Positions 30,838-61,354 of a DNA stretch of 64,000 bases are shown in pieces. The notes beneath the pieces were generated by a model. That model was not told where the DNA came from. It saw only the letters and a program-made list of their open reading frames with translations, and did no database searches. The stretch is from a bacterium (lineage in GTDB: Bacteria; Patescibacteriota; Minisyncoccia; Phycocordibacterales; UBA2100), in the NCBI GenBank assembly GCA_016789445.1, contig JAEUQT010000002.1:8052-72051 (forward strand), read 5' to 3'. The position numbers and the translations under genes were made by a program. Position 1 is the first letter of the stretch. Each line of letters opens with the position of its first letter.

Positions 30838-31194
30838 ATGACACAGGAACAGATCATCGAAGCAGTAGAGAAGATGACCGTCCTCGAGCTCAACACGCTC
30901 GTGAAGGCGATCGAAGAGAAGTGGGGCGTTTCTGCAACTGCAGTTGCAGCAGCAGGTCCGGCAGCGGCAGCGGGCGAGGAGAAGACCTCGTTCACCGTCG
31001 AACTCACCGCAGCAGGCGACCAGAAGGTTGCAGTCATCAAGGTAGTGAAGGAAGCACTCAACCTCGGTCTCGCGGAAGCGAAGGCATTCGTGGACGGTGC
31101 TCCGAAGGTTCTCAAGGAGGACATGAAGAAGGAGGAAGCCGACGAGCTCAAGACGAAGCTCGAAGGAGCAGGAGCAAAAGTTACCATCAAGTAA
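30838..31194 (+). CDS. rplL: 50S ribosomal protein L7/L12
   Basis: N-terminal dimerisation helix, Ala/Gly/Pro hinge, and C-terminal domain (VIK.V...L.L.EAK..VDGAPK.LKE...KEEA.ELK.KLE.AGAKV). Confidence 0.9.
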
Positions 31195-31273
31195 CTTTTG
31201 CGAGTGCTCGGGAAGAGTCGGGTGAGCCGTGGGTTAAGGAGCGGCGTAAAGAGTTTCCCGTCTCGGAGAGCAG

Positions 31274-31303
31274 AAAAAGATCCGCACCAGCGGATCTTTT
31301 TCG
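31274..31303 (+). terminator. Rho-independent terminator (AAAAAGATCCGC-acca-GCGGATCTTTTTCG)
   Basis: Perfect stem plus T-tract, 80 nt after the rplL stop. Confidence 0.6.
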
Positions 31304-31307
31304 TTGA

Positions 31308-31370
31308 GAACCGAGGGTTCTCAAGGAGGAGCTTGCGACGACTGTTGGTGCGAAGGTCACGATCAAGTAA
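31308..31370 (+). pseudogene. Diverged duplicate of the rplL 3-prime end (encodes ...PRVLKEELATTVGAKVTIK*)
   Basis: GGTTCTCAAGGAGGA is identical to rplL positions ~31098-31112. The terminal GAKVTIK-stop is encoded with five synonymous codon differences from the real rplL end. It is followed by its own terminator. Confidence 0.5.
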
Positions 31371-31391
31371 TCTCTCGTATCAAAAAGAGAA

Positions 31392-31423
31392 GCGCCCGAC
31401 GATGTGTCGGGCGCTTTTCGTTT
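31392..31423. terminator. Bidirectional terminator (GCGCCCGAC-gatgt-GTCGGGCGCTTTTCGTTT)
   Basis: Perfect 9-bp stem. It ends the rplL-remnant unit on the + strand and abuts the stop of the minus-strand receiver-like gene. Confidence 0.6.
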
Positions 31424-31826
31424 ACGCTGCTTTCTGGTGATCGCGTGAAAGCTCTTGAAAGATCAGCCCTGCTTGCTGGCATATGTTCAATCGCAGCTCT
31501 TGCTCCGTATCACCCGATGCGAAGAAATTACAGCCTGCGACCTGACAGGCGAAGGCCCCCTCATTCGTTGCATAGGCTTCAAACACGATCATCGGGTTTC
31601 CGAATTCTCTGCGGATCTTTCGGACAAGTCGCGCTGTTTCTCGTCCGTTCCCGCAAAAATTCGCATCCACTACGATGATGTCGGTATCAAGCATCTCGGT
31701 CCATCGCCAGCGAAGATTTAAAGGCGATCTCGACCTCTCGACATGGTCGATCCCGAAACGTCTCAAATTCTCCGAAAGCATGTTCCCGAATGAGCCTTCG
31801 GGTGCAAGCAAAAGAACTTTTTCCAC
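31422..31826 (-). CDS. Stand-alone atypical (pseudo-)receiver domain protein
   Basis: REC-like beta-alpha fold with the phospho-acceptor Asp (IIVVDANF), but it lacks the N-terminal acidic pair (LLLAPEG) and the conserved Thr/Lys. Start reassigned to a GTG at 31826, preceded by AAGGAG at 7-nt spacing. The tabulated ORF extends to an ATG at 31889. Confidence 0.5.
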   Translation of the reverse strand: MEKVLLLAPEGSFGNMLSENLRRFGIDHVERSRSPLNLRWRWTEMLDTDIIVVDANFCGNGRETARLVRKIRREFGNPMIVFEAYATNEGAFACQVAGCNFFASGDTEQELRLNICQQAGLIFQELSRDHQKAA

Positions 31827-31941
31827 CGCGTATCTCCTTTCTGAAGAGTGCGAGGATCGAACAATACAACGATAATGCGGGTCAAGCAAGGAGATTTTTT
31901 ACCAGAAAATCACCTCATGCTACAATCCGCTTACTACGGAT

Positions 31942-33592: not shown

Positions 33593-33944
33593 CCGCCTTA
33601 CATATGGGACTTAAGCAGATGCAAAAGAAGTGGCGTGGATAGCCAGATTTTTTCTGTCCTTCCGATTGCCGCTTCCGAGCGGCTTTTTTTGTACCCGTGT
33701 GTAGCTCGTTGACAACTGAAGAACGACATCAAATTCAGCGTAGAGCCGCAAGGCTTTGCGTTGAGAAAGAAAACGAAAGAATCAAATGTTCTTATTTCTG
33801 GTTACAAGTCTCCAGAAATAAGATCAGGAACCTTCTTCCGAAAGGAAGGAGGCTTGTAGGACACCAAAACCTTCGTATCCTCTGCACTAGACATGCATGA
33901 TGCGAAGTAAAAGAACACGCGGTTCCCAGAATTCTCATAACGAG

Positions 33945-36895
<2,951 letters not shown>

Positions 36896-37170
36896 CGTTA
36901 GGGAATTGTGGGTATCCGTGTTCGCACGGTGTCCAACGCAAGTCTTTCGTTTTTGATGGTGTCGTTCTTCAGTTGCCAAAGGGCATGATCTTTTAGATAT
37001 TCGTGGATTTCAGAGAGGAAAGTCGCATGACTTCTCCTCGGCGGGGGTGAGGGATAGGCTCACACATTGGACATCTGTCCACTTCGGTCGGGCTAAGTTC
37101 CTCTATGAAGGGCAATGCTCTCTCCCCGCTCTTCTCTGAAATCCATGAATACTTAGACTATTGAAGATTC

Positions 37171-37281
37171 TGTGTTGGTGGTTTGGCGAAGGGGGTACAC
37201 CCGTTCTCATTCCGAACACGGCAGTTAAGCCCTTCTGCGCCGATGGTAGTCGAAAGGCGAGAGTAGGTCGCCGCCAACACA
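37171..37281 (+). rRNA. rrf: 5S ribosomal RNA
   Basis: CCCGTTCTCATTCCGAACACGGCAGTTAAGCCC...GCCGATGGTAGT, with terminal helix TGTGTTGGTGG/CCGCCAACACA. Confidence 0.85.
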
Positions 37282-47306: not shown

Positions 47307-47554
47307 GCCTCTACTTGTCTCACTCTACTGATCTAGAGCTTCGTGAGATCGAGGATCCCACGAGGCCTTCTTTGGCGTGGGGTAGACCTTTGAAAACTGA
47401 AGAGAGAAACAAACGATCTCCGACCCGCAAGGGTTCGGGGAACACACACATAAGCAAGAACACAAGAAAGTAAAAGAAAGCATTGGAACAAAAGATGTAC
47501 ATTCTTTTGTTCCGTCCAACCTAATCAAGATAGGAGTAGAAATACTCCGTCTTT

Positions 47555-49015
47555 AACTGAGAGTTTGATCCTAGCTCAGGGTGAATGCTGGCGACGTGGA
47601 TAGGGCATGCAAGTCAAGGGGACCGCAAGGTAACCGGCAGACGAGATAGTAACGCGTAGGAACGTACCCAGAAGTCGGGCACAGCTCGCCGAAAGGCGGG
47701 GTAATTCCCGATGGTCTCGCAAGAGTAAAGATTTATCGCTTCTGGAGCGGCCTGCGTAATATCAGCTAGTTGGTGAGGTAATGGCTCACCAAGGCTATGA
47801 CGTTTAGGGGAGCTGAGAGGCTGACCCCCATCGATGGAATTGAGATACGGTCCATACTCCTACGGGAGGCTGCAGTCGAGAATATTCGACAATGGGCGAA
47901 AGCCTGATCGAGCGACGTCGCGTGGTGGATGAAGTCCTTCGGGACGTAAACATCTTTTATGAGGGAGGAAGTTATTGACGTTACCTCATGAATAAGGGGC
48001 TCCAAACTCTGTGCCAGCAGGAGCGGTAATACAGAGGCCCCAAGCATTACCCGGAATCATTGGGCGTAAAGGGTGCGTAGGTGGTCATATTAGTCGAATG
48101 TTAAATCCCGGGGCTTAACTCCGGAATCGCGTTCGAAACGGTACGACTCGAGAGCGTGAGAGGTGAATGGAACTCATGGTGTAGGGGTGAAATCCGTTGA
48201 TATCATGGGGAACACCGAAAGCGAAAGCAATTCACTGGCACGTTTCTGACACTCAAGCACGAAAGCGTGGGTAGCGAACGGGATTAGATACCCCGGTAGT
48301 CCACGCCCTAAACGATGATAACTGGATTTAGGGAGTATCGACCCTCTCTGAGTCGAAGCTAACGCGTTAAGTTATCCGCCTGGGTAGTACGGTCGCAAGA
48401 CTAAAACTCAAAGGAATAGACGGGGGCTTGCACAAGTGGTGGAGCGTGTGGCTTAATTCGTCGCTAAGCGAAGAACCTTACCAAGGTTAGAAATCCTACT
48501 GCACGCCTTCCGAAAGGAAGGAAGCCTTCGAGGGTGTAGGACAGGTGATGCATGGCTGTCGTCAGTTCGTGGTTTGAATCGTTCCCTTCAGTGGGGTAAC
48601 GAACGCAACCCTCGTTGCCTGTTATATTTGTCAGGCGAGACTGCCCCCTCACGGGGGAGGAAGGTGGGGATGACGCCAAGTCAGCATGTCCCTCTGATAT
48701 CTTGGGCTGCACACGCGCTACAATGGCTACTACAGCGGGGCGCGACGGGGTAACCCTGAGCAAATCCTTCAAAAGTAGCCTCAGTTCGGATTGAGGTCTG
48801 CAACCCGACCTCATGAAGCTGGAATCACTAGTAATCGCGGGTCAGCCACACCGCGGTGAATACGTTCTCAAGCCTTGTACTCACCGCCCGTCAAGTCAGG
48901 GGAGTTGGGAGTGCCCGAAGCGCATCCTTGCGATGCTTCAAGGCAAACTCAATGACAAAGACTAAGTCGTAACAAGGCACGGGTAGCGGAAGCTGCTCGT
49001 GGATTCATTCTAAAC
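47555..49015 (+). rRNA. rrs: 16S ribosomal RNA (unlinked from 23S-5S), with a non-canonical 3-prime tail
   Basis: GAGTTTGATCCTAGCTCAG start, CTCCTACGGGAGGCTGCAG, GTGCCAGCAGGAGCGGTAATAC, GGATTAGATACCCCGGTAGTCC, AAACTCAAAGGAATAGACGGGGG and GTCGTAACAAGG. The 3-prime end reads GGATTCATTCTAAACAACCTTCTCTT instead of GGATCACCTCCTTA, so the exact 3-prime boundary is uncertain. Confidence 0.85.
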
Positions 49016-51180: not shown

Positions 51181-51307
51181 ATTGGCCAAACGAGGCTTAC
51201 TGCGTACAATGCCTCCGAAGGGCACGTGGTGGAATTGGTATACACGTACGTTTCAGAAGCGTATTCCGCAAGGATTGGGAGTTCAAGTCTCCCCGTGCCC
51301 ACTGAAT

Positions 51308-52675
51308 TTAGAAGGGATAGGTGCGTCCGTTCCCTGAATTGTAGAGAGACTCAATTTGTTCGTTGGTGAGAACGGTGTCCCAAATGCCGCATTCATCAAT
51401 AATGCCGTCGAAGAAATTAAAGTTCAATTTCTGGTATCGTCCTATGCTGATACTTGTCTCTCCAGCCGTCAAAGTTTCGTCTGCAGTGTTCGTGCCGTCA
51501 CTTACCCCGTTCAAAAACAGCTCCTTGCCTGACTGATTCCAGGTGAAAGTCGCCATGTACCACGTATCTGTGGCAAGGGGGGTGTTTCCAAGTACTGCGT
51601 TGTTTCCTGCCCCCATGTAGCCGAACAGAACATCACCATTATGTACCGCTACTCCAAAATCCAGTCCACCCGTTGTGACATTAGTAGCGCTACTAAAGAT
51701 AGATGGATTTCCGGGAGAAGGGTCGAGGGTTTCGGCTTTTATCCAACAACTCAACGTTCCTGTCGTCGTGTCAAAGTAACCCTCATTTGCGCGGGAAAAG
51801 TACTGGGATGATGAATATTCTAAGTCCGCACCGTTATTAATTCGTCCGGAAGCATACAAAATCGAATTCATGTTAGTAAGTGTCTTTCCATTCCCCGTAG
51901 CATCTGCCGCATCGCCACTTGACTCATCAAACTTCCAATACGCAATCGGTTCCGGAATTGAGACGGATGGTCTCGGATTGAGTGCAATGAGTTGCGATAC
52001 CCAGTTTTGTTTGATGGATTTGCTGAATGTAGATGATTTAGATCCTGACGCCCCGGCTGACGATTGTGCACTGACGTCCAACGCTGTTGAGGGGCCCAAT
52101 GGAGCATAAGAGATATCGTACTTTTCTGACATGCCGTTCGGAGCGCTGAATCTGCCTCCGGAGAACAATCCTGCATCAATAGAGAAGAGTGCGACAAGTT
52201 GGGAATCCTCGGTGGTCGTTGTGATGGACGGGGCGGTGGCCGTAGTGCCGCGTCCGCTCGATTCAGACACTGGTCCGATAGGATCACCCGCGTCGACGCC
52301 GCTGAATCGAGTGATGCCTCCTGCTGCGCGGGTGGTAGGGGAGATTCTCCAGATGTAGGCATCTGGCTCGGATCCCGTTGCGAGCTTCCAATATGATGCA
52401 ATTGAGATCTCATTTCCTTTGTTCGTGTGCTCGATTACATTCCAGCCATCAGGAATAGTGATTTGAGGACCAGTGCCTCCAAGGAAGGTTATGTTTGCAA
52501 TGAGTATGTCGCCAGCACCTACATCAGCGGGTGTGTCGACACTTACCTCTGAATACGCAACGTTTGTCGAAAATGCGGTCGATGACGACCCGGCTGTGAT
52601 GCCAGCGAGTGCGACGGTGGCGAGTACTAAAGAGACTAAAATACCTGCAGGAACACCAAAACGGGCTCGTTGCAT
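51308..52675 (-). CDS. Secreted protein with a C-terminal LamG-like (concanavalin A-like lectin) jelly-roll domain
   Basis: Start at MQRARFGVPAGILVSLVLATVALAG (signal peptide, ATG 52675). The C-terminal ~200 aa carry the LamG_3-type pattern (YWKFDE..GD.A.D.SGNG..GTL ... LFLNGV). The 3-prime part of the gene is AT-richer than the 5-prime part. Confidence 0.6.
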   Translation of the reverse strand: MQRARFGVPAGILVSLVLATVALAGITAGSSSTAFSTNVAYSEVSVDTPADVGAGDILIANITFLGGTGPQITIPDGWNVIEHTNKGNEISIASYWKLATGSEPDAYIWRISPTTRAAGGITRFSGVDAGDPIGPVSESSGRGTTATAPSITTTTEDSQLVALFSIDAGLFSGGRFSAPNGMSEKYDISYAPLGPSTALDVSAQSSAGASGSKSSTFSKSIKQNWVSQLIALNPRPSVSIPEPIAYWKFDESSGDAADATGNGKTLTNMNSILYASGRINNGADLEYSSSQYFSRANEGYFDTTTGTLSCWIKAETLDPSPGNPSIFSSATNVTTGGLDFGVAVHNGDVLFGYMGAGNNAVLGNTPLATDTWYMATFTWNQSGKELFLNGVSDGTNTADETLTAGETSISIGRYQKLNFNFFDGIIDECGIWDTVLTNEQIESLYNSGNGRTYPF

Positions 52676-52784
52676 AATTAGGTAGATGAAGAAGTAATTG
52701 CCGCAATCGTAGCATGGGCCGATAACCAGCATGTGGGTTGTGCACTGCGTTGTGCTCTCTAGGAGGCTCGGCTAGAATCGACCA

Positions 52785-53855
52785 ATGAACGCGCCCATTC
52801 CCGGACCCTCGTTTTTCATCGGGAAGGGCGACGAATCCCTTATTTCCTTCGGTTCCGGACAGCCGGATCTTCCGCCGCCGGAGGAGGCGTTCCGCATCCT
52901 GCAGCAGTATCGCGGCTTCAAATATGGTCCGGTACAGGGATCCGTCGCCCTGCGCAGCGAGCTCGCGAAGCTGTATCCGGACGCTGAGCCGCATCAGTTC
53001 GTCATAACCAATGGGGCGTCCGAGGCGATTGATCTCGTCTTGCGCGCGATCTACGAACCGGGTGGCAAGATCCTTTTGCCGCGGCCGTACTACTACTCGT
53101 ATCCGCACAACGTGACCTTGGCGCACATGGAGCCGGTCTACTATGACCTTGATGAAAACGGGAAGATCAATCTCGGTACCTTCATGGAGGCAGCGAAGGG
53201 TGTCGTTGCGGTGATGATAAACTCGCCATCGAATCCGACCGGTACCGTACAGGAGGTTGAGACCCTGAAGGCGATCGAGCAGTTTTGCGCGCGAGAAGAT
53301 ATCTACATCATCTCCGATGAGGTCTACAAGGATCTCATCTATGTGCGCGAGAATTATCTCCTGCATGGTCCGCATGTGGTGACCGTCAATTCGTTTTCTA
53401 AGACGTACGCTATGTGTGGTCTCCGTGTCGGATACGTATATTCGCAGGATCAGGAGCTCATCGAGAAGATCATCGAGATGAAGACACACACGGCGATGAA
53501 CACGAGCATTCCGGCGCAGGAGATGGCGATCGCGGCGCTCGCTTCACCGCGCTCGTATGTGACGGATTACGTCGAAGTATGGAAAGCGCGCCGCGACCTC
53601 ATGTACCAGGGAATGAAGGCGCTCGGCCTCGAATTGTGGGAGCCGGAGGGGGCGTTCTACGTGCTCCCTAAGTTCAAGCACTCGGGGAGGGTCGTGAGTG
53701 ATTTATACTATACGTACCGCATGATCACGTATGACGGCGCCTGGTTCGGTGCCTCGGATCGCGTGCGGTTCAGCTACGCCCTGGATGTCTCGAAGATCGA
53801 AGAGGGTCTGAAGCGACTGAAGCAATTTCTTGAAAACGAGTACAAAAACTATTAA
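52785..53855 (+). CDS. Pyridoxal-phosphate-dependent aminotransferase, class I/II fold
   Basis: NSPSNPTG, SDEVY, and SFSKTYAMCGLRVGY (PLP-lysine region). Confidence 0.8.
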   Translation: MNAPIPGPSFFIGKGDESLISFGSGQPDLPPPEEAFRILQQYRGFKYGPVQGSVALRSELAKLYPDAEPHQFVITNGASEAIDLVLRAIYEPGGKILLPRPYYYSYPHNVTLAHMEPVYYDLDENGKINLGTFMEAAKGVVAVMINSPSNPTGTVQEVETLKAIEQFCAREDIYIISDEVYKDLIYVRENYLLHGPHVVTVNSFSKTYAMCGLRVGYVYSQDQELIEKIIEMKTHTAMNTSIPAQEMAIAALASPRSYVTDYVEVWKARRDLMYQGMKALGLELWEPEGAFYVLPKFKHSGRVVSDLYYTYRMITYDGAWFGASDRVRFSYALDVSKIEEGLKRLKQFLENEYKNY

Positions 53856-53857
53856 GT

Positions 53858-53886
53858 ATGATCGGGCTTTTCGATTCAGGATCAGT
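53858..53886 (+). pseudogene. Diverged duplicate of the murI 5-prime end (encodes MIGLFDSGS...)
   Basis: The first nine codons encode exactly the same residues as the real murI start at 54020 (MIGLFDSGS), but six of the nine codons differ synonymously. The frame then diverges and stops after ~45 codons. It lies 2 nt after the aminotransferase stop. Confidence 0.4.
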
Positions 53887-54019
53887 CGCGCACAACCCCG
53901 ACCCCCGCTTAAGAAACCAAAGGTTTCTTACGTCGCTCCGCTCCTATCTTCCTGACACGGGGTCGTGCGTCGCCAGATCGCCGCTCGCCCGATGAATATG
54001 ACCTATAATTTCACATAAT

Positions 54020-54817
54020 ATGATTGGTCTCTTTGATTCTGGATCTGGCGGGCTCTCGGTTCTCCGGGCGATCCGTCAGCGCAATCCGAATGCAGATGTC
54101 GTCTACTTCGGCGATATCAAGCACGCACCGTACGGGACGCGCGAAGCACATGAGCTCGTACATCTTGCTACCAATGGCCTCCGCACGCTCCGCATGTTTG
54201 GGGCGCAAGAGATCGTGAGTGCCTGCAACACGGTCTCCCCGCACGTGCTGAGTCATGGTGCGGAAGGTGCCGATGTTATCGAGATGACCCGTCCAGCGGC
54301 ACGCGGCATGCGTCAGCACGCTGGGGGAAAAGTGCTTCTTCTCGCGACACCTGCAACCGTTTCTGCACGTATTTACGAAAGTGCGTTCGGCGGGATGGTC
54401 ATCCTCCATCAGCATGCGATACATGATCTCGCGGGAGCTATCGAATTCGGTGCGCATGACGACAAGATCCGCGATATCGTACGTAGCGAATTCCAGAAGC
54501 GCTGGGGGGAGAATTTCGATCACGTCTTTCTCGGCTGCACGCACTATCCTTTTGCACGACACATCATCGAAGAGGAGGCGCAGGCGGCATTCGGTACCAT
54601 TTCGATCATCGACCCGGCAGAATCAGTTGCGGAAGAAGCCGACCGACGCTTCGAGACACGAGGCTCGGGATCCATTTTCTTCCGTGCCTCGCAGGATTCG
54701 GAGCATTTTCGTCGCCGCATTCAGGAGTTGTTCCCGGAGTACGAACATACTATAAAGATAATTCCTCCTTTCAGCTCCGTATGGCTCACCAGCAATTTTT
54801 CAATGGGAAACGCGTAA
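54020..54817 (+). CDS. murI: Glutamate racemase
   Basis: MIGLFDSGSGGLSV, CNT (active-site Cys) and GCTHYP motifs. A perfect TATAAT sits at 54005-54010, 9 nt upstream of the ATG. Confidence 0.85.
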   Translation: MIGLFDSGSGGLSVLRAIRQRNPNADVVYFGDIKHAPYGTREAHELVHLATNGLRTLRMFGAQEIVSACNTVSPHVLSHGAEGADVIEMTRPAARGMRQHAGGKVLLLATPATVSARIYESAFGGMVILHQHAIHDLAGAIEFGAHDDKIRDIVRSEFQKRWGENFDHVFLGCTHYPFARHIIEEEAQAAFGTISIIDPAESVAEEADRRFETRGSGSIFFRASQDSEHFRRRIQELFPEYEHTIKIIPPFSSVWLTSNFSMGNA

Positions 54818-56094
54818 CCGTCCTCGGTCTCGGTCTGCTTGGTCGGGGTATTGGGGATGCTGCGTTCATCGCATCGCAGGGCGGCATTGTAACGGTTACT
54901 GACCGGAAATCCGGTGCCGAGCTTCAGGAATCCATTCAACGACTTGCGGAATACGACATCACGTTCCATCTCGGCGGACATATTGAGAGCGACTTCACCG
55001 ATACCGATATGGTAATCAAGGCGGCGGGCGTGCGCCTCGATTCGCCGGAAATCGCGGCCGCGCGCGCGGCGGGTGTTCCGGTCTATATGTCGACCGCGCT
55101 TGCGGCGAAATTTGCCGCTGAGTCCGGAGTAACCGTCGTTGGTGTGACCGGCACGCGCGGCAAATCGACCGTGACCCACATGATTCATCACGCGCTGGTG
55201 GCAGCAGGAAAGCGAGCGCACCTCGGCGGCAATATCCGCGGTGTCTCGACCTTGGCACTGCTGCCGGAGATGCAGAAGGGCGACTTCTTGGTTCTGGAAC
55301 TTGATTCGTGGCAGCTGCAGGGATTCGGGGATCTCGAGATGAGCCCGAATGTAGCGGTGTTCACGAATCTGCAGACCGACCACCAGAATTACTATCCTGA
55401 TATGGATACGTATTTCAGTGATAAGGCGAATATCTTCCGTTTCCAGAAGAAAGGGGATTCGCTCATTGCGACGCCCGAGCTTGCGGAAAAGATCACGGCG
55501 ATCGCGGCGGGGGAAGAGGCATACCGCACGCATGTCGAATCTCCCGCACCTGCAGAATGGAAACTCAACATGCCGGGCGAGCACAATCGCGTGAACGCGG
55601 CACTTGCGGCCGCGGCACTTGAGGTGCTTGGTCTGAGCGCCGAAGAGGTCCGTACTGGTCTTGAATCATTCGCTGGCGTGGAAGGCAGGCTCCAGTTCGT
55701 CCGCGAATTCGCCGGCGTGAAAATCTATAACGACAACAATGCCACCACGCCACAAGCCACTATTGCGGCTCTTCAGGCGCTTGATGCAGGAAAGAAAAAC
55801 ATCATCCTCATCATGGGCGGGGCAGATAAGGGACTTTCTTTCGACGATCTTCTTGGGCAGGCTGAGAAAAGTTGCAAGGAAGTAGTATTGCTCACCGGAA
55901 GCGGCAGCGACCGTGTGTTCGATAAGAAAGCGATGTATCGCTATGACGATCTCGATATGGCAGTTCAGGCGGCCCTCGGGCGCTCGCAAGAAGGTGACGT
56001 TCTCCTCTTCAGCCCGGCGTTCGCATCATTCGGTATGTTCAAGAACGAATACGATCGTAACGATCGATTCCTTAAGATCATCAACGCACTATGA
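54781..56094 (+). CDS. murD: UDP-N-acetylmuramoyl-L-alanine--D-glutamate ligase
   Basis: N-terminal Rossmann G.K..V.GLGL.GR, GVTGTRGKST P-loop, and a Mur-ligase central and C-terminal domain. Overlaps the murI 3-prime end by 37 nt. Confidence 0.75.
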   Translation: MAHQQFFNGKRVTVLGLGLLGRGIGDAAFIASQGGIVTVTDRKSGAELQESIQRLAEYDITFHLGGHIESDFTDTDMVIKAAGVRLDSPEIAAARAAGVPVYMSTALAAKFAAESGVTVVGVTGTRGKSTVTHMIHHALVAAGKRAHLGGNIRGVSTLALLPEMQKGDFLVLELDSWQLQGFGDLEMSPNVAVFTNLQTDHQNYYPDMDTYFSDKANIFRFQKKGDSLIATPELAEKITAIAAGEEAYRTHVESPAPAEWKLNMPGEHNRVNAALAAAALEVLGLSAEEVRTGLESFAGVEGRLQFVREFAGVKIYNDNNATTPQATIAALQALDAGKKNIILIMGGADKGLSFDDLLGQAEKSCKEVVLLTGSGSDRVFDKKAMYRYDDLDMAVQAALGRSQEGDVLLFSPAFASFGMFKNEYDRNDRFLKIINAL

Positions 56095-57362
56095 GCCCTA
56101 TCCCGCAGCGTATCTATATGGTCGGTATCGGGGGTATCGGGATGTCGGGTCTCGCACAGCTCTTGGTCGCACGTGGACTCGCGGTTTCCGGCTCCGACCG
56201 GGAAGAATCCCCGACTACGATGCTTCTTCAGAAAAAGGGAATCCGGGTCTTCATCGGTCACGATCCATTGTTTGTTCCCACCGATACCGAGCTCCTCATC
56301 TACAGCGATGCAGTGCCCGCAGAGAGCCCGGAACGCATGAAGGCGCATGAGCTTGGCATAAAGCAGATCTCTTACTTCGAGATGTTGGGGGAAATCAGCA
56401 AGGGTTCTCGGACGATCGCGGTCGCAGGAACGCATGGAAAGACGACGGTGACCGGCATGCTTGCGGCGATCCTTAAGGCTGCGGGCAAAGAGCCGACCGC
56501 GATCGTGGGATCCATCGTCCGTGATTTCGATTCGAACTTCCTTCCGGGCCGGAACGATCTTTTCGTCGTCGAGGCATGCGAATACCGCGATCATCTTCTC
56601 GAGCTCTCCCCGGAGATTCTCGTCATCACGAATATCGAACTCGATCACACTGATTTCTTCCCGTCGCTCGTTGCACTCCAATCGACCTTCTCGCAAGCAG
56701 TGCGGCGTGTCCCCGAGAAGGGGGTGATCATCACCAATACGCACGATCCAAACGTTGCATCGGTCTTGGAGAAGGTGCAGGCGGAGATATTCGATTACAC
56801 CATAGAGGAAGTACCAAAGCTCGACCTTATCGGGGAATTCAATGCGGCGAATGCGCGGGCTGCGAAGTGCGCTGCGAAGGCGGCGTTTCCTGATATCTCA
56901 GACGAGGTGATCGACATCGCACTCAAGGAATTCAAGGGCGCGTGGCGCCGGTTTGAATACAAAGGGGAGACAAAGAACGGCGCGATCGTCTATGACGACT
57001 ACGCACATCATCCGACTGCAGTCGAGAAAACCATCCAAGCAGCGCGCGAGAAATTCCCGGGTAAGCGCATCGTGGTCGCGTTCCATCCGCATCTCCATAG
57101 CCGCACTGAAACCTTCCTGCATGAATTCGCGCAGGCACTCGATAGTGCTGATCGCGCGATCGTGGCCCCGATCTATGAAGCCCGTCACGAGCAGACGCAT
57201 ACGATCTCGAATCACTCAGTCGCTGAAGTCGGTCAGCATGTAGAAGCGATGGATAGTTTCGATGAGATTCGTGAAGCTCTTGCGGCAGAGTCGGCAGGAA
57301 CACTCATTATCACGATGGGTGCGGGAGATATTTATAAAGTCGCTGAGCAGCTCGTCCACTAA
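56091..57362 (+). CDS. murC: UDP-N-acetylmuramate--L-alanine ligase
   Basis: IYMVGIGGIGMSGLAQLL, GTHGKTT, and Mur-ligase domains. 4-nt overlap with murD. Confidence 0.85.
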   Translation: MSPIPQRIYMVGIGGIGMSGLAQLLVARGLAVSGSDREESPTTMLLQKKGIRVFIGHDPLFVPTDTELLIYSDAVPAESPERMKAHELGIKQISYFEMLGEISKGSRTIAVAGTHGKTTVTGMLAAILKAAGKEPTAIVGSIVRDFDSNFLPGRNDLFVVEACEYRDHLLELSPEILVITNIELDHTDFFPSLVALQSTFSQAVRRVPEKGVIITNTHDPNVASVLEKVQAEIFDYTIEEVPKLDLIGEFNAANARAAKCAAKAAFPDISDEVIDIALKEFKGAWRRFEYKGETKNGAIVYDDYAHHPTAVEKTIQAAREKFPGKRIVVAFHPHLHSRTETFLHEFAQALDSADRAIVAPIYEARHEQTHTISNHSVAEVGQHVEAMDSFDEIREALAAESAGTLIITMGAGDIYKVAEQLVH

Positions 57363-59584: not shown

Positions 59585-61354
59585 ATGCAACCCATCAGGG
59601 ATAGTGGGGCTGATGATGAGCGCCGCATCACGTACTTTGCGACGACCCATACCCGCGGCAAGCGGGAGATGTTCGGCATACGTGCGGTAGATCGCGGTAA
59701 GCACATGTACGTGATCGGGAAAACCGGTATGGGGAAGTCCACCATGCTCGAGAACATGGCGATCCAGGATATCCAGAACGGGGAAGGTATCGCGTATATC
59801 GATCCGCATGGTTCGACGGCGGAGAAACTTTTGGATTTCGTTCCGCATGAACGAATCAAGGATGTGCTCTACTTCGCGCCGTTCGATACCGACTATCCAG
59901 TGGGCTTTAATGTCATGGAAGATGTTGGCTACGACAAGCGTCACCTCGTCGTCTCAGGCCTCATGGGTGCCTTCAAGCGCATCTGGGTCGATGCTTGGTC
60001 GGCACGTATGGAATACATCCTCCAGAACGTCCTCCTCGCGCTTCTCGAGTATCCCGGCTCCACACTCCTCGATGTGAACCGCATGCTCACGAACAAACCC
60101 TTCCGTGCGGCGGTCATCGAAAAGATCACCGACCCCATCGTGAAAGCGTTCTGGACAGAGGAGTTCGCAACCTACACCGATCGCTATACCCAGGAAGCGA
60201 CGCCAGCGATCCAGAACAAGGTGGGTCAATTCGTAGCGAATCCTTTGATCCGCAATATCGTGGGCCAGCCGAAATCGACATTCAACCTGCGTCAGATGAT
60301 GGACGAAAAGAAGATTTTCATCGTGAATCTCTCCAAGGGGCGCATGGGTGAATCGAATGCCGCGCTCTTAGGCTCGATGCTCACGGTGAAGATCTATCTC
60401 GCGGCGATGTCGCGTGCCGATGAGCCGCCCGCACGCATGGCGAAGCTGCCACGCTGCTATTTCTATGTCGATGAGTTCCAGTCGATGATGAATGAGGCGT
60501 TCGCCGACATCCTTTCGGAATCGCGCAAATACAAGCTCGCGCTCACCCTCGCAAACCAGTACATCGAGCAGATGGAGGAGAATGTACGCAATGCGGTCTT
60601 CGGCAACGTGGGAACACTCGTCACGTTCCGCGTGGGACCTTTCGATGCGGAGGTCTTGAAGACGGTTTTCGAACCGACGTTCGAAGCGGAGGATCTCGTC
60701 GGCCTCGGTCTCGGTCAGATCTACCTCACGCTCATGATCGATGGCGTGGGATCGGCGCCATTCTCAGCCGAGACGGTTCCGCCTATCGAGGCGCCGCATG
60801 TTTCGTATCGCGAGGACGTCATTCATCACACGCGCAGCGCACACGCGAAGCACCGTTCGGAAGTCGAGGCCATCATCGGGAAGCGGCAAGAAGAATTTGC
60901 GCCGCCTCCGAAAGCACCACCGCGAGAGCGCGATCGATATCCGCGGGAGAACAATTCTGGTGCAAACGGTAATCACCAGCGAGCACCGCAGCCGCGACGA
61001 GAAGATCGTCCTCGTGACGAGGCTCCGCGCGAACCGCGACCGCAGCAACCACAGCCAGCGCCCGTGGCAGAACAGCGCTCGGCTCTGCGAGATGCGATCG
61101 CATCGGTCCAGAAGAAGCCGGAGGAGGTACCAAGGAGCGACGTTCGTTCGCCAGCAGAAATCATGCGTTCGCGCCTCGCCAAGAAAATGGCACGACATGC
61201 GGGCGATGCACCTCCGGAATTCCCGCGCGCACCGCAGGCTCAGCCACAGCCCGTGCGGCCTCCACGAGTTGAATCTGAGGCGCCCCGAACTCCGCGAGCC
61301 AAGCGCGATGAAATCGCAACCGAAGACCTCAAGAAGATATTGAGCGGGGACTAG
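59585..61354 (+). CDS. P-loop NTPase of the FtsK/HerA/TraD-TrwB (type IV coupling-protein-like, DUF87-like) superfamily with a ~160-aa Pro/Arg/Glu-rich disordered C-terminal tail
   Basis: Walker A VIGKTGMGKST, IDPHGS (resembling the DPKG motif of coupling proteins), Walker B YFYVDEFQ, KYKLALTLANQ. There are no TM segments. The C-terminus from ~aa 430 is low-complexity P/R/E/Q-rich. A TATACT hexamer lies 7 nt upstream of the ATG. Confidence 0.55.
   Translation: MQPIRDSGADDERRITYFATTHTRGKREMFGIRAVDRGKHMYVIGKTGMGKSTMLENMAIQDIQNGEGIAYIDPHGSTAEKLLDFVPHERIKDVLYFAPFDTDYPVGFNVMEDVGYDKRHLVVSGLMGAFKRIWVDAWSARMEYILQNVLLALLEYPGSTLLDVNRMLTNKPFRAAVIEKITDPIVKAFWTEEFATYTDRYTQEATPAIQNKVGQFVANPLIRNIVGQPKSTFNLRQMMDEKKIFIVNLSKGRMGESNAALLGSMLTVKIYLAAMSRADEPPARMAKLPRCYFYVDEFQSMMNEAFADILSESRKYKLALTLANQYIEQMEENVRNAVFGNVGTLVTFRVGPFDAEVLKTVFEPTFEAEDLVGLGLGQIYLTLMIDGVGSAPFSAETVPPIEAPHVSYREDVIHHTRSAHAKHRSEVEAIIGKRQEEFAPPPKAPPRERDRYPRENNSGANGNHQRAPQPRREDRPRDEAPREPRPQQPQPAPVAEQRSALRDAIASVQKKPEEVPRSDVRSPAEIMRSRLAKKMARHAGDAPPEFPRAPQAQPQPVRPPRVESEAPRTPRAKRDEIATEDLKKILSGD

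Follow-up and report, generated by a model that had tools for sequence, protein, structure and literature searches.

Elements of the SXT/R391 type integrate into the 5′ end of prfC, supplying a new promoter and N-terminal codons; promoter-bearing miniature inverted-repeat transposable elements (MITEs), such as Correia elements, are about 100–170 nt long and carry an internal inverted repeat and a −10-like box; and free-standing homing-endonuclease loci have co-converted, recoded flanks. Displaced or 'orphan' gene ends left by homology-facilitated illegitimate recombination have been described in other systems (PMC5361080; PMC3240628), the process itself being treated in work cited in PMC5361080 (de Vries & Wackernagel 2002; Prudhomme et al. 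2002; Meier & Wackernagel 2003), and orphan ends are also known from the effector–immunity arrays of rearrangement hotspot (Rhs), contact-dependent inhibition (CDI) and type VI secretion (T6SS) systems (Kirchberger et al. 2017, PMC5361080). Here, we analyse a comparable arrangement at murI, the glutamate racemase gene, in a 64,000-nt stretch of contig JAEUQT010000002.1 (assembly GCA_016789445.1, Patescibacteriota), hereafter the window. The bacterium is a relative of Kaiserbacteria and Paceibacterota. In this window, a short echo of the murI start is followed by a hairpin-forming spacer and only then by the functional gene. The best explanation, which we favour with some reserve, is that a stranded start and a foreign patch together form a segregating recombination scar, clean but fairly ordinary, that still varies between strains.

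The echo, ATGATCGGGCTTTTCGATTCAGGATCA (53858–53884), and the functional start, ATGATTGGTCTCTTTGATTCTGGATCT (54020–54046), are offset by 162 nt, and both encode MIGLFDSGS, the motif with which all MurI homologues open (MIG[LF]FDSGSGG). They differ at six sites, all synonymous, and the longest run identical between them in the window is 5 nt; the sequence and coordinates of this nine-codon duplication, first pointed out in a reading made from the sequence alone (the sequence-only reading), check out. The echo ATG stands 2 nt past the stop codon TAA (53853–53855) of an aminotransferase gene. Of the 81 single-base changes possible in the nine echo codons, 19 are synonymous, which gives p ~1.7e-4 for six out of six, and when both ends of 49 open reading frames (ORFs) were scanned against their flanks, the murI 5′ echo was a clear outlier (z = 8.5, next best 3.4). 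On these two grounds, the echo exceeds chance. Because all six differences are synonymous, the two copies would represent two orthologous alleles rather than a decaying local duplicate. The features of the locus are as follows.

52785–53855, + strand: class I/II aminotransferase gene (Pfam PF00155, E = 2e-57), the upstream homologous anchor
53858–53889, + strand: echo, read as the ancestral murI start; nt 1–23 identical to the empty allele, nt 24–32 a degenerate tail (GGATCAGTCG in the window, GGATCAGGCG in L002)
53858–53995, + strand: upstream ORF from the echo ATG, 45 codons, TGA at 53993–53995, ending 24 nt before the real ATG
53880–53900, + strand: left arm of a long inverted repeat, core 53889–53900 (CGCACAACCCCG), outer part overlapping the echo tail
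53881–54053, + strand: patch of 173 nt distinguishing the window from the empty allele, from fine-scale alignment
53910–53930, + strand: inner perfect hairpin TAAGAAACC-aaa-GGTTTCTTA, 9 bp, from repeat finder and folding
53958–53979, + strand: right inverted-repeat arm, CGGGGTCGTGCG followed by t-CGCCAGATC
54004–54009, + strand: TATAAT, a −10-like box, 10 nt before the murI ATG
54020–54053, + strand: re-spelled, putatively imported murI codons 1–11, which resemble the spelling of L001 and L002 more than that of the empty allele of the strain itself
54020–54817, + strand: murI, glutamate racemase, 265 aa (PF01177)

Filled and empty states of this locus were found through contigs encoding exactly the MurI of the window. 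Four contigs (L009, L011, L012 and L013) are filled, with the same 162-nt offset, and in two others (L008, 50 kb, and L010) the aminotransferase stop is followed by GT and directly by murI, without any spacer. In these empty contigs, murI opens at the echo position with ATGATCGGGCTTTTCGATTCAGG...; the allele begins ATGATCGGGCTTTTCGATTCAGGTTCAGGTGGTCTC, and its first 23 nt are spelled as in the echo, unlike the functional start of the window. Among contigs whose MurI is at least 99% identical, eight are filled, counting the window, and two are empty. Compared column by column, the window and L008/L010 show no mismatch over 51300–53880 and are identical again over 54054–54150, the patch (53881–54053), which stands in place of murI nt 24–33 (TTCAGGTGGT), being their sole difference within 51300–54150; beyond this, about 10% purely synonymous divergence extends to approximately 55100 and is followed by near-identity. 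The patch allele is an insertion/deletion polymorphism within the population. Since the flank-identical L008 and L010 lack the spacer and start murI in the echo spelling, the echo is best read as the original murI start, and since the empty alleles have identical flanks, the insert appears to have displaced that start, in agreement with one of two origins proposed in the sequence-only reading, the insertion of a small structured element. The empty allele was also considered as a simple excision product, but L008 reads GGTTCAGGTGGT and not the ...GGATCTGGCGGG expected if the two copies had recombined with each other. Across murI (54020–55100), the window differs from L008, L010 and L011 at 73–74 nt sites while encoding the same 265-aa protein (about 9% synonymous divergence), a restriction to synonymous sites that is in part an ascertainment effect of having looked the contigs up by exact protein. 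This divergence shows very strong purifying selection and the coexistence of diverged haplotypes in one population.

These alleles bear directly on two simpler accounts. The first, a tandem duplication at the 5′ end of murI with the upstream copy decaying in place, is in keeping with the two direct copies lying 162 nt apart, but decay should hit any codon position, whereas only synonymous differences are seen; the echo equals the strain's own empty-allele start, the functional copy being the divergent one; and the spacer resembles neither murI nor its flanks. Already contradicted by the empty alleles, this account is hardly tenable. An assembly or chimeric-contig artefact is suggested only by the general risk attached to metagenome assembly, while the same filled structure recurs in at least seven independent assemblies from different runs (the empty one in two), and the filled structure of a second species was seen in three Hainich samples, so that we regard this explanation as negligible.

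The patch consists of the hairpin-forming spacer, the TATAAT box and the re-spelled murI codons 1–11. The inserted non-coding DNA amounts to 135 nt, and the spacer has no similarity to murI or its flanks. Past the right arm of the inverted repeat lie 40 nt of spacer and 34 nt of new start. The right boundary of the patch falls inside murI codons 11–18 (54053–54075), beyond which the alleles are collinear and identical. The blocks of the spacer include ACAACCCCGACCCCC and CACGGGGTNNNNNGTCGCCAGATCGCC. In relatives, the state of the locus is distributed as follows.

L015–L017, MurI 99% identical: filled, spacer 100% identical to that of the window
L018, MurI 95%: filled, spacer 97.7% identical
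L002/L014/L027/L028 (a Hainich groundwater metagenome-assembled genome), MurI 80%: filled, with echo ATGGTCGGCCTATTTGATTCGGGATCAGGCG, a homologous spacer and a real start
L006, P0007, L001, L029, L021–24 and L025/26, MurI 87, 86, 85, 84, 81 and 80%, respectively: empty, with aminotransferase stop, 2–6 nt and ATG
L019 and L020, MurI 83 and 84%: murI behind a tRNA gene and preceded, 6 nt from the ATG, by a −10-like box of its own
L030, MurI 79%: the same junction occupied by an unrelated AT-rich element of 135 nt, which has terminal inverted repeats of 21 bp

The aminotransferase gene also precedes murI in L001, L006, L008, L010, L021–L026 and L029. The spacer of the L002 type has about 54 extra nt of hairpins, and spacer blocks are 80–87% identical between the window and L002, about the same conservation as in the coding flanks. 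The echo/spacer junction, after GGATCAGGCG, is identical in all three filled lineages, which argues that the patch architecture arose once, and its distribution is patchy, most relatives between the diverged filled lineages (MurI 95% and 80%) being empty. The patch allele seems old enough to be shared with a species of only 80% identical MurI. The L030 insert was rejected as a homologue of the spacer, being an unrelated AT-rich sequence bounded by terminal inverted repeats; it fills the interval from the aminotransferase stop to the ATG of murI (L030 1362–1503), its 21-bp repeats read CCCGGTAGGACAATTTCGAAT and ATTCGAAATTGTACTAACCGG, it is flanked by TATG...TATG and it resembles a MITE insertion.

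In every strain pair, the flanks of the locus are a mosaic of tracts that are either about 0% or about 10% diverged. The window and L015, for instance, share an identical tract of 209 nt (53867–54075) flanked on both sides by about 10% divergence, and further identical tracts at 54700–54900 and 55700–56700. As mosaic tracts occur in all pairs and similar identical tracts occur elsewhere, short-tract homologous recombination appears to be general in this population and sufficient to shuttle the allele from one background to another. In its 5′ part, the echo tracks its own flank haplotype, reading GGG in the window, GGA in L015 and GGC TTA in L018; the echoes would differ almost only synonymously because each is a piece of a formerly functional start on its own flank haplotype. 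Allelic replacement by recombination with divergent relatives, the other origin put forward from the sequence alone, thus finds support in the spelling of the new start, in the mosaic tracts of single-nucleotide polymorphisms and in the fact that diverged lineages share the allele.

The history that we propose starts from a layout in which murI lay 2–6 nt after the aminotransferase stop and had no promoter of its own, an arrangement still shown by the flank-identical L008 and L010 and by most related species. We infer that, in some ancestor, a foreign fragment entered the resident murI in a single recombination event. This fragment would have brought along an upstream region able to form a hairpin, a promoter of the leaderless type and the opening codons of a diverged murI. 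Homology inside murI would have anchored its right end, while its left end would have been joined illegitimately after nt 32 of the resident gene, the first 32 nt of which would thereby have been stranded upstream. Such a process would correspond to homology-facilitated illegitimate recombination or 'recombination at the border'. Given that the flanks are mosaics of ~0% and ~10% tracts, the patch allele was probably moved about by ordinary homologous recombination between diverged backgrounds after this one ancient, one-sided event, a spread that the shared tracts document in part; the echo and the aminotransferase 3′ end would serve as the left recombination arm and murI as the right one. As in homology-facilitated illegitimate recombination, foreign DNA would be trapped beside a stretch of homology, conserved coding sequence (here, murI codons 11–18) holds one of the junctions while the other would be illegitimate, and resident sequence would be displaced rather than cleanly replaced. 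Unlike in studies of that process, the murI event is deduced from natural variation and not observed, and the allele that resulted was retained, reached several lineages and probably rewired expression. The likeness extends to the orphan ends of Rhs, CDI and T6SS arrays, where an incoming anchored allele pushes the resident end aside and leaves a remnant beside the new copy, as also seems to be the case for an rplL 3′ echo in the window described below. Those cases are 3′ toxin/immunity modules under diversifying selection, whereas the murI case concerns the 5′ end of a housekeeping cell-wall gene, with 32 nt displaced.

An alternative is that the patch is a dedicated non-autonomous cassette that homes or integrates in the first 11 codons of murI, mobilized in trans by a nuclease or recombinase, and carries a promoter together with a re-spelled copy of its target that restores the gene and perhaps blocks re-cutting. 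Several observations are in keeping with this: the presence/absence polymorphism in otherwise identical backgrounds, the patchy spread across lineages, the identity of the element to that of L015 and its 97.7% identity to that of L018 against flanks that are 10–17% diverged, breakpoints that hug the element ends, the synonymous recoding of the imported target copy and the different small inverted-repeat element at the same junction in L030. Of these, the identity of the element is not exceptional, given the similar-sized identical tracts elsewhere between the same strains. Further copies of the spacer were found neither in the 64-kb window (30-mer search allowing 3 mismatches, and blastn of the patch) nor in 214 kb of related loci, where pattern searches and blastn matched murI sites only. 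A match of the form AACCCCG...CGGGGTT at position 6495 of L002 lies inside a coding sequence and was attributed to chance. A pattern scan of JGI metagenomes returned only the L002 contig, and a scan of viral contigs and a blastn search of phages gave no matches to the spacer. No recombinase or homing-endonuclease gene was detected among the 10 neighbouring proteins scanned, and the insert holds only the upstream ORF. An L020 ORF followed as a LAGLIDADG lead was set aside, since it stands in a different, tRNA-linked context and has no similarity to the spacer.

The structure of the insert was likewise compared with that of known mobile elements. The inverted-repeat arms (53880–53900 and 53958–53979) do not bound the insert, and in place of a short identical target-site duplication there is a flanking direct repeat of 27–32 nt with six synonymous differences, and of its two copies it is only the upstream one that matches the empty allele. 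The murI patch is like Correia elements in being small, in having a hairpin-capable inverted repeat and in delivering a −10-like box next to a gene, and unlike them in its non-bounding repeat, in having no short fixed target-site duplication and in the single copy found; it is the L030 element, unrelated in sequence, that constitutes a genuine inverted-repeat-bounded element at this junction. As with SXT/R391 elements at prfC, an essential gene is entered within its opening codons, the incoming DNA brings N-terminal codons and a putative promoter, and the former 5′ end stays behind upstream, but the murI patch comprises 135 nt of non-coding DNA, with no recombinase among the 10 neighbouring proteins scanned, no large element and no shared identical core: to the right of the putative crossover the real copy reads ATCTGGCGGG and the native one TTCAGGTGGT, and neither this, the 5-nt longest run shared by echo and real start nor the right boundary fits the single crossover point needed by a site-specific attL/attR pair. 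Homing-endonuclease loci share with the murI patch the presence/absence at a conserved target, the synonymous recoding of the filled allele and the short shared tracts, while no endonuclease ORF lies within or beside the murI insert. The spacer-copy, terminal-inverted-repeat and misassembly checks that had been proposed as able to overturn the sequence-only reading were thus all negative, and nothing positive in the mobile-element tests supports a dedicated cassette, which we consider unlikely. Less likely still is its more specific form, a trans-mobilized 'start-replacement cassette' homing into the first eleven codons of murI, in which the recoded target would keep the essential gene intact and make the filled allele immune to re-cutting while a leaderless promoter travels aboard. 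If a targeted mini-cassette did exist, it would be a new kind of mobile DNA, and if it were a start-replacement cassette, the murI patch, the tRNA-His and rplL echoes described below and the L030 element would point to a wider class of gene-end-targeting mini-elements in bacteria of the candidate phyla radiation (CPR).

Under the recombination scar that we prefer, the patch would also have altered how murI is expressed. The genome is essentially devoid of Shine–Dalgarno motifs, and the 3′ end of its 16S rRNA (~49000–49014) reads GGATTCATTCTAAA where CCTCC would be expected. A TAnnnT motif ends 5–10 nt before the start in 13 of 42 other ORFs, against 1.6 expected, with a peak at 6–7 nt, a layout that suggests mostly leaderless transcripts. 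The perfect TATAAT reported ahead of the murI ATG is present, although the gap is 10 nt and not the 9 nt that had been stated, and it is a likely leaderless-type promoter brought by the patch. No two-hexamer promoter or intrinsic terminator was found by a consensus scan of 53600–54300 on both strands. In L002, TACTAT stands 9 nt before murI, whereas no TAnnnT box precedes murI in the empty allele, which must therefore rely on the aminotransferase transcript and tight coupling. The patch would uncouple murI and the overlapping murD and murC that come after it from the aminotransferase gene, supplying a −10 box next to the ATG, and most likely gives murI–murD–murC a putative promoter of their own. 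Since the stranded ATG keeps the coupling position after the aminotransferase gene, it is probably still translated, yielding a 45-codon stub. That the frame opened by the echo diverges and then stops had been noted before and holds, the TGA lying at 53993–53995; the corresponding ORF of L002 has 72 codons and overlaps the real start as ATGA. A conserved upstream ORF was considered and rejected: the frame is open in all three filled lineages, yet at chance level (30% and 15% of shuffles equal it), a frameshift and a 54-nt indel separate the window from L002, there is no conservation of the peptide, and the 72-aa ORF of L002, used as a query in a protein search, matched only itself.

The spacer could, instead, be a selected cis-regulatory RNA leader in which hairpin and echo switch murI expression, for example with the echo acting as a decoy that competes with the real start for pairing to CGCCAGAUC and with translation of the upstream ORF as the read-out. 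Both structures described in the sequence-only reading exist: the stem CGCACAACCCCG/CGGGGTCGTGCG (53889–53900/53958–53969) forms 11 of 12 pairs with one A·C mismatch, and it encloses the perfect hairpin listed above. L002 retains the outer stem, in which two neighbouring pairs have changed in a compensatory way (CGCAC/GTGCG to CTTAC/GTAAG), and the stem reaches 21 bp there by taking in the echo tail GATCAGGCG and CGCCAGATC. The latter 9-mer (53971–53979 in the window) is the exact reverse complement of murI nt 23–31 in all lineages. These features, the fold z-score of −3.0 in L002 and the upstream ORF open in three lineages speak for a leader. The covariation, however, comes from one lineage among only three distinct sequences and is equalled by 54 of 500 shuffles, the fold z-score of the window is only −1.5 to −2.0, and the predicted fold pairs the murI 9-mer GAUCUGGCG locally within murI and not with the upstream 9-mer. 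Moreover, the openness of the upstream ORF is at chance level, a search of Rfam 15 with the window and L002 on both strands gave no family at gathering or permissive thresholds (best 12 bits, E > 4), the structure would be absent from transcripts starting at the new −10 box, and the majority of relatives lack it. Evidence that the RNA structure is functional is weak, and we think a selected leader quite improbable. Two further resemblances were discarded: the spacer was suspected of holding the entire murI start in inverted orientation, but only CGCCAGATC aligns (p ~0.01–0.03), and the likeness of GACCTATAAT to ATGATTGGTC did not survive alignment.

Several observations weigh against an ordinary recombination scar. 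The left breakpoints of the shared tract fall within a 14-nt interval inside the echo (53867–53880), which is tight for RecA-type exchange, and a targeted mechanism would also fit. No donor carrying the spacer in its native context was found in the searches above. The inverted repeat takes in the echo tail and a murI-complementary 9-mer, which the scar does not explain; that this complementarity templated the original illegitimate join is speculative. The conservation of the spacer at the level of the coding flanks implies later transfer or constraint, neither of which a scar predicts. The offset of the TATAAT box lies 3–4 nt beyond the modal 6–7 nt. Finally, the difference between the window and L008 would fit gain of the patch by the window as well as a regained empty allele in L008.

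Two other gene-terminus echoes that had been reported in the window were also verified. A remnant of the rplL 3′ end lies at approximately 31306–31370, with five synonymous differences in the last seven codons. Within this region (30838–31420), the real rplL ends at 31194, the spacer holds its own terminator hairpin (31274–31303), and the remnant, which also has an internal deletion, is followed by a second terminator (31390–31420). The remnant is fixed in 10 of 10 population contigs (L031–L040), and exactly after its stop codon two unrelated haplotypes start (31371–31941): about 560 nt with a minus-strand 155-aa ORF (31422–31889) in the window, L032 and L033, and about 130 nt of different sequence in seven other contigs. 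As its differences, too, are confined to synonymous sites and its spacer carries a terminator, the rplL 3′ echo appears to be a parallel case, and the site after it has the look of a gene end at which cassette-like replacements are anchored. The tRNA-His gene (207–281) ends in the 15-mer CCCATCGATCACCCC (267–281), which recurs at 402–416 as the end of a 135-nt GC-rich, hairpin-rich insert that looks like a small att-type insertion or remnant at the tRNA 3′ end. The rplL and tRNA-His cases support displaced gene ends as recurrent in the window, and they agree with the orphan ends ascribed elsewhere to homology-facilitated illegitimate recombination (PMC5361080; PMC3240628). Upstream of murI in L020 (1590–2430), a 235-aa ORF with a faint LAGLIDADG match lies beside a tRNA gene, and a partial repeat of the tRNA 3′ end, GGGAGTTCGAGTCTCCCCATGCCCAC, about 30 nt past the tRNA is another gene-terminus echo in a CPR bacterium.

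Further features of the window were recorded. The rRNA genes are unlinked and in an unusual order, 23S–5S (33942–37279) lying about 10 kb upstream of 16S (47553–49014) on the same strand with protein genes between them. At 51308–52732, on the minus strand, a 474-aa Laminin_G_3 protein is encoded, and between the window and L015 the 3′ third of its gene (51300–51900, the C-terminal part) has diverged by about 45%, against about 5% for the rest, which marks it as a hypervariable part of a likely surface protein. Downstream of the mur genes (59585–61354) lies a gene whose 589-aa product has domains of type IV secretion coupling proteins (TrwB/VirD4-like), and L008 has the same protein at the matching position.

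The murI locus is an unusually clean natural example of a displaced gene end, with filled and empty alleles in base-identical backgrounds. Small genomes without Shine–Dalgarno motifs carry several gene-terminus echoes, and these are useful markers of such events in metagenome-assembled genomes. For this uncultured CPR bacterium, the locus suggests that exchange of DNA with diverged relatives by recombination can change how an essential cell-wall operon is expressed; the operon would have shifted from translational coupling to the aminotransferase gene to a putative leaderless-type promoter of its own, with the old start left as a probably still-translated stub.

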